Below, in pieces: positions 2-3,373 of a stretch of 64,000 nucleotides of DNA (its first letter is position 1; every line of letters begins with the position of its first letter). The stretch is taken from contig MTMD02000015.1 in assembly GCA_002010065.2 (NCBI GenBank), forward strand, positions 32,001-96,000, written 5' to 3'. The translations under genes were made by a program, and so were the position numbers. The notes under the pieces are model-generated. The model saw nothing but the letters and a program-made list of their open reading frames with translations. It was not told where the DNA came from and did no database searches. The DNA is from Candidatus Pyrohabitans jungbluthii. GTDB taxonomy: Archaea > Hydrothermarchaeota > Hydrothermarchaeia > Hydrothermarchaeales > BMS3B.

Positions 2-1942
2 ATCTACCCCACCAAGGCTCTTGCCAGAGACCAGCTCTCAAAATTTAAGGAGATTGAAGCCGCGACAGGCGTGCGCTTCGCTGTGCTGGACGGCGACACC
101 CCTCGCGAGGAGAGGGAGAAGATTTACGCCTCTCCGCCAGAGGTGTTGATAACCAACCCCGACATGCTTCACCTTCACCTCATGCTCCCCTGGAGCGAGT
201 TTCGCGGTCTTCTTCACGGGGTGTGCTACGTGGTGCTGGATGAAATCCACGAGTACACCGGTGCCTTCGGAGCGAGTATCCACTTTATCCTGCGAAGGCT
301 CCGAAGGTTTGCTAACTTCCAGCTAATAGCTGCAACCGCGACCCTCGCCAACCCTGAAGAGTTTGCCTCCCAGCTCTTCGGGTGTAGCGCTGAGCCTGTC
401 GCAGAAGAGGGGCGGAAGGGGAGGCTGCACTTTGCCATGCTCTACCCTGAAGAGGGTAGCGAGACCTCGCTGATAGTGGCGATAATGCGGGAGCTTTACC
501 AGGAAGGTCTCAAAAACCTTGTTTTTGCAAACACCCACAAAAATGCAGAGGTAATACTTAAAGTAGCTAGAAAGCAAAAGCTCAGGGCAGAGATTCACCG
601 CGCTGGTTTAACTAAAAAGCATCGCGAGGCTGTGGAGCGTGCCTTTAAGAGCGGAGAGCTTCGCTGCATGGTTGCGACGCCAACCCTTGAGCTGGGCATA
701 GATATCGGCGACTTAGACGCCGTCGTTACGATGCTCACCAGCTTTACCCGCGTGCTTCAGCGCATAGGTAGAGCCGGACGAAAGGGACAGGAGAGCCTAG
801 CTTTGATGGTGCTCAGAAACAACGACCCGATAAGCTCCTACTATCTGGAGCATCCCGATGACTACTTTGGCGACGTGGCTCCGGGCTACGTGGAGCCGGG
901 CAATGAGGTTGTGGCGAGGCATCACATTCTTGCAGCCGCGCTGGACATGCCCCTTCGCAGAGGAGAGTTCGCAGAGTTTGCGGGGCTAATTGAGAAGCTT
1001 GTGAAGGAGGGGCTGCTTGTTGAGAGGAGAGGGAGGCTATACCCGGACTACAGGCGAGTGCGAAAGGTTCTGGCTAATTATAATCTCCGTGGCGTTGGCG
1101 AGGAGGTGGTTATCCGCGAGGGCAAGCGGAGAATAGGCACTAGGAGCATGCCAATGGCGGCGCGGGAGCTCTTTCCGGGGGCGATTTACCTCCATGGGGG
1201 CGTGGCTTATGTGAGCAGAAGCTTTTATTTCTCCTCTGGCAGAGGCGAAGCTGTGGTTGAACGCTTCCACGGGGAGGAGAACATAAAGACCGAAGCCCTG
1301 CGCTTCTCTGTGCCTGAGATTGTAGAGACCATCGCGAGGCGTCGCGCTCTGGGTGCAGAGCTTGTATACGCGAAGCTGCGCATTACCGAGGTGGTGCACG
1401 GCTACGTGGTCAGGGATATATACACAAACAAGAAGCTGGAGGAGGCTTCGCTTGCAGAGCCCATAGAGTATACCTTCACCACCTACGGCGTAGCCTTCCG
1501 TGCGCCTGAGCCAGAGCCTTTGCCAGAGCCCCAAAGCGGTGCTTTTAGCCATGAGGAGATACTCTCCGGAACCTTCCACGCGCTGGAGCATGTGCTTATA
1601 GAGGGGAACAATATGCTCCTTGGCGGCGGCGCAGGCGAGCTTGGAGGCATTGCCATGGGCACCTCGGGGGTGATCTTCATCTACGACGGGTCGCCGGGTG
1701 GCAATGGGCTTGCAAAGCTCCTGTACGACCGTTTTGAGACTGGAGTTAAACGCGCGAGGGAGATTCTCAGGATTTGCAACTGCAAGCGCGACGACGGTTG
1801 TCCGCGATGCACCTACTCCTACCAGTGCGGAAACAACAACCGCCCCCTATTTAAGGCAGGCGCCCTCGCGTGTGCAGAAACACTGCTGCGAGGAAAGGCA
1901 AGAGCAATAGGAGACTATGAGGGTGAGAAGCCATACGTGTAG
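2..1942 (+). CDS. DEAD/DEAH-box SF2 helicase with C-terminal DUF1998/Zn-binding domain (SftH/Hrq1-like); 5' end lies outside the window
   Basis: Frame is open from position 2 (IYPTKALARDQ, motif Ia); DEIH, TAT, QRIGRAGR motifs; C-terminal C-x-C-x4-C-x2-C cluster. Confidence 0.9.
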   Translation: MYPTKALARDQLSKFKEIEAATGVRFAVLDGDTPREEREKIYASPPEVLITNPDMLHLHLMLPWSEFRGLLHGVCYVVLDEIHEYTGAFGASIHFILRRLRRFANFQLIAATATLANPEEFASQLFGCSAEPVAEEGRKGRLHFAMLYPEEGSETSLIVAIMRELYQEGLKNLVFANTHKNAEVILKVARKQKLRAEIHRAGLTKKHREAVERAFKSGELRCMVATPTLELGIDIGDLDAVVTMLTSFTRVLQRIGRAGRKGQESLALMVLRNNDPISSYYLEHPDDYFGDVAPGYVEPGNEVVARHHILAAALDMPLRRGEFAEFAGLIEKLVKEGLLVERRGRLYPDYRRVRKVLANYNLRGVGEEVVIREGKRRIGTRSMPMAARELFPGAIYLHGGVAYVSRSFYFSSGRGEAVVERFHGEENIKTEALRFSVPEIVETIARRRALGAELVYAKLRITEVVHGYVVRDIYTNKKLEEASLAEPIEYTFTTYGVAFRAPEPEPLPEPQSGAFSHEEILSGTFHALEHVLIEGNNMLLGGGAGELGGIAMGTSGVIFIYDGSPGGNGLAKLLYDRFETGVKRAREILRICNCKRDDGCPRCTYSYQCGNNNRPLFKAGALACAETLLRGKARAIGDYEGEKPYV

Positions 1943-2184: not shown

Positions 2185-2880
2185 ATGAAGCTTATCTACG
2201 CTGGCAAGGCTAAAAGCTTGTATGAGCTGGACGAAGAGCGCGTGCTCATGGAGTTCCGCGACGACTTAACCGCAGGAGACGGTGCGAAGAAGGCGACAAA
2301 GGCTGGAAAGGGAGCGCTTAACGCAGAGATATCTGCTAAGTTCATGGAGCTTCTCAGGGGAAAGGGAATACCCACGCATTACCTCGCCTTTGAGGCGCCA
2401 AACAAGCACGTAGTGAAGCGCGTTAAGATAGTGCCCCTCGAGGTTATTGTGCGCAACATAGCCACAGGTAGCTTGGTGAGGCGCTACCCCTTTAAAGAGG
2501 GCACCGAGCTATCGCCACCCATTGTGGAGTTCTGCCTAAAGAGCGATGAATACCATGACCCCATGGTGAACGAAGACATAGCCCTCGCTTTGAGCGTCGT
2601 CTCTTCAAGGGAGGAGCTCGCGAAGATGCGCGAAATTGCGCTGAAGGTGAACGAAGTCCTGAGCGAGTTCCTGCGGGAGAAGGGGATTATACTCGTAGAC
2701 TTCAAGCTGGAGTTTGGCTATGACAGCGAAGGCAATCTCATTGTTGCGGACGAAATCTCTCCCGACACCTGCCGCTTTTGGGACGCGGAGACAAGGGAGA
2801 TTATGGATAAAGACCGCTTCCGGCGCGATCTTGGGGATGTACTGAAGTACTACGAGGAGGTAAAAAGGAGAATCTCATAA
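2185..2880 (+). CDS. purC: SAICAR synthetase
   Basis: GKAKSLY, FRDDLTAGDG, LVDFKLEFG, DEISPDTCRFWD motifs. Confidence 0.97.
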   Translation: MKLIYAGKAKSLYELDEERVLMEFRDDLTAGDGAKKATKAGKGALNAEISAKFMELLRGKGIPTHYLAFEAPNKHVVKRVKIVPLEVIVRNIATGSLVRRYPFKEGTELSPPIVEFCLKSDEYHDPMVNEDIALALSVVSSREELAKMREIALKVNEVLSEFLREKGIILVDFKLEFGYDSEGNLIVADEISPDTCRFWDAETREIMDKDRFRRDLGDVLKYYEEVKRRIS

Positions 2881-2913
2881 AACTGATGAAAAACTACAAG
2901 AAGAGTATAAAAA
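2876..2913 (-). terminator. U-rich archaeal terminator tract for the minus-strand RNA
   Basis: TTTTT…TTTTT…TTTT runs on the minus strand directly after the terminal stem. Confidence 0.45.
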
Positions 2914-3125
2914 CCGGATTTGAGGTCAAGCGGTTAAACCTTAAGGCACGCCTCAAAGGCTTACCCTTTTTAGGGGGCAAACCTCTTTAGCATTGCCTAT
3001 CAGGTACACAGCCCGGCGAACAGGTAGCTGTCCCGCACCTTCACTCCCAACCCGGGTTTCCCCGAATGAGAGTGTCGGGCAAAGACGAGCGCCCTGCCGA
3101 ACTGCCCGCTTGATTTCCTCTCCGG
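2914..3125 (-). ncRNA. Unidentified highly structured ncRNA (~212 nt, terminal stem plus four arms)
   Basis: 5'/3' ends pair (CCGGA-GAGG-UCAAGCGG with CCGCUUGA-CCUC-UCCGG); four internal hairpins with G-U pairs and GAAA/UUCG loops; upstream BRE/TATA; downstream oligo-U. Confidence 0.7.
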
Positions 3126-3148
3126 TGGAATAAATATTGTATTAGTCG

Positions 3149-3164
3149 CATAAATAGTTTTCGG
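3149..3164 (-). promoter_or_regulatory. BRE/TATA promoter of the putative ncRNA
   Basis: CCGAAAACTATTTATG about 25 nt upstream of the RNA 5' stem. Confidence 0.5.
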
Positions 3165-3373
3165 TTGATATTTATTACTCCTAGGAATCTGAAAGTGGGG
3201 TACGTAGATTATTTCGCCTAACTGAAGAGAGCATATGCCCAAGCTTCCTGACAGAAAGACAGGATGGGTAATCAGACATGTAACCTAGCCTTGGATCCAA
3301 ATGTGCAAGAGCTATAGAATCTCCTCAGAGTTTGAAGGGTTTCTCATCCCTCGAATGGTCAATCGCTCTGTTT

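Follow-up and report, generated by a model that had tools for sequence, protein, structure and literature searches.

A conserved structured RNA gene in Hydrothermarchaeales with a predicted bulge-helix-bulge closing stem and a putative circular product

The RNAs known to carry the bulge-helix-bulge motif (BHB) and to be processed through it comprise tRNA introns and rRNA precursors, together with a small number of mRNAs and a single SRP RNA, a permuted one that is repaired. Some tRNA introns, once excised at the BHB and ligated by RtcB, are stable rings with a function of their own, such as the tRNA-Trp intron with its C/D box guide. The motif recognised by archaeal splicing endonucleases is described as two 3-nt bulges on opposite strands, with a 4-bp helix between them and flanking helices on either side (PMC6379350). 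The SRP RNA of Thermoproteus tenax and T. uzoniensis is reported as a stand-alone gene with a TATA box, whose leader and trailer form a BHB that is cut by the splicing endonuclease, giving a circular product (Plagens et al. 2015, PMC4731332). The processing stems of archaeal pre-16S and pre-23S rRNA are described as giving circular intermediates in many archaea (PMC12558985), and in Haloferax volcanii EndA is reported to cut canonical motifs in the 5' UTR of HVO_1309 and in a 16S-like precursor (Schwarz et al. 2020, PMC7714728).

The window analysed here is the whole stretch of 64,000 nucleotides from Candidatus Pyrohabitans jungbluthii. It contains an RNA gene at 3125..2914 on the minus strand, the letters of which match those quoted in the original prediction. 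Like the Thermoproteus SRP RNA as published, this ncRNA has a gene to itself, with a TATA box and with a short leader and trailer that pair as a BHB, the circle being a prediction in the present case. The Thermoproteus account, however, concerns a recognisable SRP RNA in which circularisation repairs a permutation, whereas here the SRP RNA is normal and encoded elsewhere, and the enclosed interior matches no known family. The enzymes differ as well, being of the relaxed heterotetrameric type there, while a single 183-codon EndA frame is found here. The motif layout is the same as in pre-rRNA processing stems, and the AAA bulges are those of the 16S stem of the same genome, but pre-rRNA circles are intermediates that are reopened later, and the RNA enclosed here has ~195 nt and is not rRNA-like (the gene is single-copy, and BLAST of the source genome with the RNA matched only the locus itself). 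The layout is also identical to that of the tRNA-Trp intron of this genome; unlike circular tRNA introns, the locus has no surrounding tRNA, its 'exons' are ~11-15 nt each, no C/D boxes were noticed and there is no Rfam match. With the H. volcanii sites it shares a BHB outside tRNA and rRNA; as described, those sites sit in an mRNA leader or an rRNA-like fragment, whereas the present one belongs to a dedicated conserved structured RNA gene. Term searches of the literature, together with the passages that they returned, yielded no gene devoted to a BHB-flanked structured RNA that is not otherwise known, and the Hydrothermarchaeota literature found by term search was about metabolism. We propose, with moderate confidence, that the locus is a single-copy, independently transcribed structured ncRNA gene, whose transcript would be cut by EndA and joined by RtcB into a 195-nt ring that is likely the functional product.

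Folding of the minus strand gave an MFE of -116.2 kcal/mol (z -8.58); its 200 dinucleotide shuffles had a mean of -75.9 +/- 4.7, and none of them equalled it, while the plus strand of the same stretch reached -81.9 (z -3.74) in the same kind of test. The original prediction had placed the RNA on the minus strand, and this call is right because the plus strand folds much less well. A TATA-like box (CTATTTATG) is located ~28 nt upstream of the first paired base, next to a BRE-like stretch; both were assigned on the archaeal consensus, and together they constitute a predicted promoter (Table 1). The TTT at 3154-3152 and the TAA at 3144-3142 are invariant in the seven aligned loci, with diverged bases around them, so that the upstream BRE/TATA described in the original prediction is upheld by a TATA-like box conserved in 7/7 loci. 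Oligo-T is an established archaeal terminator, and the downstream oligo-U that had also been described corresponds to a T5 run, with a T-rich stretch at the same position in all homologues.

The purC gene (SAICAR synthetase) is located at 2185-2877 on the plus strand and is convergent with the RNA gene, with its stop codon 34 nt away; its identity agrees with the earlier statement that the RNA converges on purC and has no downstream gene to regulate. The next upstream gene on the strand of the RNA encodes methionyl-tRNA synthetase (metG, 5758-3791). The neighbouring genes (metG, purC, a DEAD/MrfA-type helicase and a class II ribonucleotide reductase) gave no functional lead for the RNA. The helicase gene, at window 71-1939 on the plus strand and upstream of a purS-like gene and purC, has no evident RNA link; its product is a DEAD/Helicase_C protein that has an MrfA Zn-binding domain at the C-terminus. 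Between metG and the RNA, at window 3661-3382 on the minus strand, there is a small two-CW-domain gene (NF045718) split over three frames, with profile positions 1-40 in 3661-3473, 41-56 in 3530-3462 and 60-80 in 3480-3382. The frame changes are near A6 and G5 runs, and the split gene is either a pseudogene or the result of homopolymer assembly errors.

Table 1. Features of the RNA gene and of the compared BHB motifs. Coordinates are window positions unless a locus is named; in the motif sequences hyphens separate the elements, and in the tRNA-Trp row the hyphen marks the cut.
Feature	Coordinates	Strand	Remarks
Predicted primary transcript, ~218 nt	2909..3126	(-)	inferred from TATA spacing and T run
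Predicted promoter	3149..3164	(-)	BRE-like CCGAAAA at 3164-3158, purine-rich, and TATA-like CTATTTATG at 3157-3149
Outer helix, 5' strand CCGGA	3121..3125	(-)	pairs with 2918-2914; with GAGGAA, the predicted 5' 'exon'
Central 4-bp helix, 5' strand GAGG	3117..3120	(-)	pairs with CCUC at 2925-2922
5' three-base bulge AAA	3114..3116	(-)	unpaired in MFE and consensus folds; cut predicted at 3115/3114
Inner helix, 5' strand UCAAGCGG	3106..3113	(-)	8 bp with 2933-2926; 100% of cells paired
Arm A	3008..3105	(-)	10-bp helix GCAGUUCGGC/GCCGGGCUGU; irregular stem GCU-GUC/GAC-AGC; 2x2 purine loop GA/AA; hairpin CACUCUC..GAAA..GGGAGUG
Arm B	2936..3007	(-)	base helix GUACCU/AGGUUU; GGCA..UGCC; 2x2 purine loop AA/GA; variable apical hairpin
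Inner helix, 3' strand CCGCUUGA	2926..2933	(-)	MFE fold and alignment
Central helix, 3' strand CCUC	2922..2925	(-)	invariant
3' three-base bulge AAA	2919..2921	(-)	MFE and consensus folds; cut predicted at 2920/2919
Outer helix, 3' strand UCCGG	2914..2918	(-)	MFE fold and alignment
T5 run, likely terminator	2909..2913	(-)	directly 3' of the last paired base
Predicted excised, circularised product, 195 nt	2920..3114	(-)	length computed from the predicted cuts
16S processing stem, same genome			..CAGU-GGUG-AAA-CCCGG.. / ..CCGGG-CACC-AAA-UCUG..; handedness as in the RNA
23S processing stem, same genome			..GCUGA-GUGC-AAU-CUGAC.. / ..GUCAG-GCAC-UGA-UCAGC..; handedness as in the RNA
tRNA-Trp intron (position 37/38), same genome			CUCC, then AG-A / GGAG, then AU-A; handedness as in the RNA
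RNA gene of genome G017	L027:1424-1659	(+)	BHB-flanked, 249-nt interior, z -5.4

On the RNA strand the closing stem reads CCGGA-GAGG-AAA-UCAAGCGG ... CCGCUUGA-CCUC-AAA-UCCGG. The 3-4-3 layout of AAA, GAGG:CCUC and AAA is present in both the single-sequence MFE fold and the RNAalifold fold, and in these models the interrupted closing stem is a canonical BHB motif, a character that the original prediction did not mention. The two flanking helices, outer (5 bp) and inner (8 bp), are all Watson-Crick in the window, and both show compensatory changes. The outer helix covaries between CCGGA/UCCGG, AUAGGA/UCCUAU, GCGA/UCGC and GGCGAA/UUCGCC, and the inner helix has one pair with a double-sided change and three with a single-sided one. 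All nine aligned copies, 190-217 nt in total length, have the same central helix, bulge lengths and first two inner pairs, and GAGG/CCUC is kept also in a tenth copy, that of genome G017.

The motif also has a handedness: relative to the central helix, the bulge of the 5' strand is on the inner side and that of the 3' strand on the outer side, and a transcript of the opposite strand would have the mirror form. BHB motifs are readable in the rRNA processing stems of the source genome (G000:C14:175081-176994 and 176924-180379), where a tRNA is located in the 16S-23S spacer. In the tRNA-Trp intron, as called by ARAGORN, each cut follows the second base of its bulge. ARAGORN also called a tRNA-Arg(CCG) at G000:C2:215068-215305 with a 148-nt intron at position 32, which may be another long BHB-excised RNA, and a tRNA-Ile(GAT) at G000:C14:22737-25279, the 2452-nt 'intron' of which is probably spurious. 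One EndA gene (C4:13695-13946 region, PF01974, 121 bits, 183-codon frame) and one RtcB gene (PF01139, 566 bits) were found in the genome. The length of the EndA frame suggests the small homotetrameric type, a type reported to be strict in its demand for the canonical motif (PMC4090602).

When 61 related genomes were searched by BLAST with the locus, seven gave matches, the source genome among them. Copies with ~89-90% identity are present in all four other genomes of the same genus, and two of the three sister-genus genomes were matched, in BLAST at the 3' end only; the alignment showed that both sister-genus loci hold the whole RNA with diverged arms. A covariance model (R1) was built from seven sequences, namely the window genome, the four same-genus and the two sister-genus copies. 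Over 35 genomes of the order, R1 found the same seven and no others, and over 38 genomes of the class it gave one extra, weak match (22 bits, E 0.026), in genome G017 of another family. The RNA is therefore present in 7/35 genomes of the order, and neither the family's third genus nor most of the order's families gave a copy; with filters off, R1 gave nothing below E 0.99 at nine purC loci of other genera. A pattern scan of the genomes of 185,579 species returned nine stretches, six of them in Hydrothermarchaeales and three in bacteria, the latter without an R1 match at E<=1. The corresponding metagenome scan returned six stretches, of which three are genus-1-like copies. The other three were discarded, having no R1 match at E<=1 and no matching outer helix, and appearing coding-like by eye (one with a G-protein P-loop motif). 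The motif pattern with a gap of 60-400 occurred in 14/38 genomes of the class, but the eight extras lacked helix complementarity and the reversed-pattern control gave nine matches; in 401 archaeal genomes, likewise, five extras without helix complementarity were found, against six in the reversed-pattern control.

Homologues are thus restricted to Hydrothermarchaeales. In family 1 the convergent placement with purC is constant across two genera. In G007, a sister-genus genome that is 96% complete, the RNA gene has been replaced by a transposase remnant, with only its last ~30 nt (..CCTGACCTCAAATCCTA) left, indicating that the RNA is dispensable or lineage-specific. The remnant (L043:1240-1480, on G007:C24; ~270 nt, opposite strand) appears, by eye from its translation, to be the C-terminal end of an rve-type (DDE) transposase. 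The RNA family is real, narrow in distribution and, going by the term searches, undescribed.

The weak match in G017 is a second BHB-flanked RNA gene (Table 1). Its motif reads GGCGAA-GAGG-AAU-UCAAG..CUUGA-CCUC-AAA-UUCGCC, preceded by a TATA box and followed by a T run. Its interior is well folded in its own right but is unrelated to that of family 1 and cannot be aligned with it (the R1 score being the 22 bits given above). The gene does not adjoin purC; its neighbours are a HEAT-repeat-like gene on one side and genes for hypothetical membrane proteins on the other. BLAST with this RNA over the order found no relatives, only two 27-nt matches. The one in G016 was rejected, as it falls in a coding sequence that is RadA/RadB-like by eye; the other is in G024.

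The RNAalifold consensus comprises 85 pairs, with 94.7% of cells being standard pairs. Double-sided changes were found at 24/85 pairs, against 11.6 +/- 2.4 in 500 column shuffles, none of which reached 24, although the alignment consists of nine distinct sequences from only two genera and so contains few independent events. When the partners were slid by 1-3 columns as a control, just 2-8 double-sided changes remained, and the signal is consistent along both arms. Covariation among homologues, which the original prediction had named as a check, is therefore present, and the claim of a stand-alone structured RNA agrees with it, with the fold z-score and with the RNA's own conserved TATA box. 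The RNA gene of these uncultured hydrothermal archaea is real, conserved, highly folded and non-coding, and its fold is well supported.

The better-supported shape of the modelled RNA is a Y, consisting of the closing stem and two long arms, rather than four arms on one junction as had been predicted. Two arms of that earlier layout, arm 2 (CACUCUC..GAAA..GGGAGUG) and arm 4 (GGCA..UGCC, inner hairpin included), are in the consensus, as is the terminal stem, and all three are kept across the nine sequences. Arm 3 is not supported, since its base helix AGGUGC/GUACCU is poorly kept (75.9% paired) and GUACCU pairs instead with a downstream segment (AGGUAU), with double changes at 4/6 pairs. Arm 1 (UCGGCAGGG..CUUUGCCCGA) can be accommodated by the alignment, with 92.4% of cells paired and double changes at 3/9 pairs, but competes with the long-range 10-bp helix GCAGUUCGGC/GCCGGGCUGU, which is paired in 98.9% of cells, and it is possible that arm 1 is a local alternative to this helix. 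In arm A, GUC/GAC covaries to AUG/CAU and GUG/CAC in the sister genus, and in arm B double-sided changes affect 12/28 pairs. Each arm has one conserved 2x2 purine internal loop. Between genera the apical loops differ, and the GAAA tetraloop is among those without conservation.

For the processing of this RNA we propose the following path. Transcription would start near 3126 and end at the T run, and leader and trailer would pair into the BHB, with its 5-bp outer helix, GAGG/CCUC, two AAA bulges and 8-bp inner helix. In each bulge the EndA cut would follow the second base, that is at 3115/3114 and 2920/2919, positions chosen by analogy because the cuts of the tRNA-Trp intron follow the second bulge base. 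The 8-bp inner helix would hold the ends for ligation by RtcB, in analogy to what happens with tRNA introns, with pre-rRNA and with the SRP RNA of Thermoproteus (PMC4731332). The product would be a covalently closed, Y-shaped 195-nt RNA with a new 7-base loop, CCUCAAA, and the by-product a ligated leader-trailer hairpin of ~25 nt with a GAGGAAA loop. The predicted ring has 195 nt in six of the seven genus-1 copies and 194 in the remaining one; in the sister genus it has 168 and 178 nt. The RNA very probably enters the splicing endonuclease and ligase pathway.

Geometry alone is weak evidence for such processing, as a loose scan of the genome (G-U allowed, 5+4+6 bp, span 40-420 nt) gave 934 canonical and 912 mirror-handed sites; the mirror control is not independent for Watson-Crick pairs, as it recovers the same sites on the other strand. 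Under stricter rules the motif is rare: all-Watson-Crick 5+4+5 bp sites number 11 in the genome, and the all-Watson-Crick 5+4+8 motif (span 30-420 nt) occurs once in 2 Mb, at the RNA locus; for this motif our own calculation puts the chance expectation at ~0.1 per genome. Seven of the ten other 5+4+5 sites were inspected; four are within open frames (128-448 codons), one consists of AT-rich sequence of low complexity, and the remaining two lie across gene ends with weak folds (z -3.0 and -2.5). The case rests, however, not on mere occurrence but on the position of the motif as the closing stem of a conserved, independently transcribed RNA, on its invariance across three genera with covarying flanks, on its strand-correct handedness and on its likeness to the substrates within the genome.

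The frequency of BHB-like shapes under loose rules is one reason to consider that the RNA may instead be a linear structured small RNA, in which the AAA bulges are an uncut structural or protein-binding feature of the closing stem. A second is that the invariance of GAGG/CCUC is superfluous for EndA and could mean a sequence-specific binder of the intact stem. The central-helix sequences of the rRNA and tRNA motifs differ, so EndA has no need for a given one, and for this reason the invariance hints at a role in a product. A linear RNA would leave the exact 3-4-3 geometry and the handedness, constant in three genera while the outer helix varies, to be accounted for. Moreover, an exposed canonical motif in a cell bearing EndA is expected to be cut, because EndA of this size class is reported to act on the canonical BHB whatever its context, be it rRNA, mRNA or SRP RNA precursor (PMC6379350; PMC7714728; PMC4731332). 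We regard the uncut linear RNA as unlikely, although it is the alternative that should be taken most seriously.

An orphaned or selfish BHB 'intron', derived from a former tRNA or rRNA intron or from a mobile BHB cassette, with its promoter kept and no host function, would account for one motif around unrelated interiors in two families, for the patchy distribution and for the loss of the gene in G007 beside a transposase remnant. In addition, the ligated leader and trailer would presumably mimic an anticodon stem-loop (5 bp and a 7-base loop). Against such an origin, the gene is single-copy, its purC-adjacent position is constant across two genera, the interior helices are under compensatory change, the promoter is conserved and the flanks are not tRNA-like. 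Single copy, kept position, compensatory changes and conserved promoter together point to selection on the RNA itself, and we consider the selfish origin improbable.

Standard covariance models are reported to miss permuted genes (PMC4731332), and the RNA could in principle be a known one in disguise, by circular permutation as in Thermoproteus or in some other way, the candidates being SRP RNA, RNase P RNA, 5S rRNA and guides of the C/D or H/ACA type. The genome nevertheless encodes RNase P RNA (C8:80134-80490, 193 bits), SRP RNA (C2:240017-240335, 219 bits) and 5S rRNA (C2:515496-515616, 91 bits) elsewhere, each of them full-length and unpermuted, and 16S and 23S rRNA (C14) are likewise found elsewhere, in line with the earlier remark that the locus lacks RNase P and SRP signatures. 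With all of these universal RNAs full-length elsewhere, a disguised copy at the locus is very unlikely. Rfam 15 at gathering thresholds found three tRNAs and nothing else in the 64-kb window. In a permissive search of window 2750-3300 (E<=10) the best matches had E 0.36-3.1, far below gathering scores, so that not even a partial match of any worth was obtained, and three homologous loci gave no match at E<=1; the absence of a recognisable family noted in the original prediction thus extends to the homologues. No conserved C/D boxes (RUGAUGA/CUGA), ACA boxes (ACA after a pocket hairpin) or K-turn were noticed by eye; there is a CUGA at 3004-3001, which the sister genus does not keep, and no ACA was seen by eye after either arm. 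A T-loop-like GUUCGCC was considered and set aside, as it is not conserved in the sister genus. We give very little credence to a disguised known RNA, and as little to a cis-acting or antisense element, such as a terminator region or a structure in a 3' UTR, connected with purC or with one of the genes upstream (two-CW, metG). The convergent purC stop codon 34 nt away would favour such an element; against it are the absence of overlap with purC, the RNA's own conserved TATA box, the location of the related G017 RNA away from purC and a fold far larger than any terminator.

Returning to the ring as the proposed product, a coding circular RNA was considered and rejected, as no stop-free frame runs around the predicted ring in any of the nine copies. 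Every frame contains 1-5 stops in the seven copies with a length divisible by three, and the other two have 6 or 10 stops per reading over three passes. With stops in all frames and no long conserved single strand, the ring is not read as coding or as a guide RNA, and the conserved 2x2 purine loops and shape-conserving arms would fit a stable protein-binding or scaffold role. A far more speculative idea, to which we assign little probability, starts from the 3' end of the 16S gene of this genome, CCTCCT. Hydrothermarchaeales, and perhaps other archaea, could carry dedicated 'all-intron' genes that yield nothing but a ring excised by the tRNA-splicing enzymes. The invariant CCUC, freed into the 7-base loop, would then imitate the end of 16S rRNA that bears the anti-Shine-Dalgarno CCUCC, and such BHB-born rings would be regulatory RNAs that titrate ribosome-binding sites or their reader, with interiors that could differ as cargo.

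The RNA family is absent from Rfam and is a candidate for addition. If the proposed processing is true, archaea would make dedicated circular ncRNAs via the splicing endonuclease and ligase route, and the locus, with a leader and trailer of ~12 nt each, would provide a natural compact scaffold for that route.
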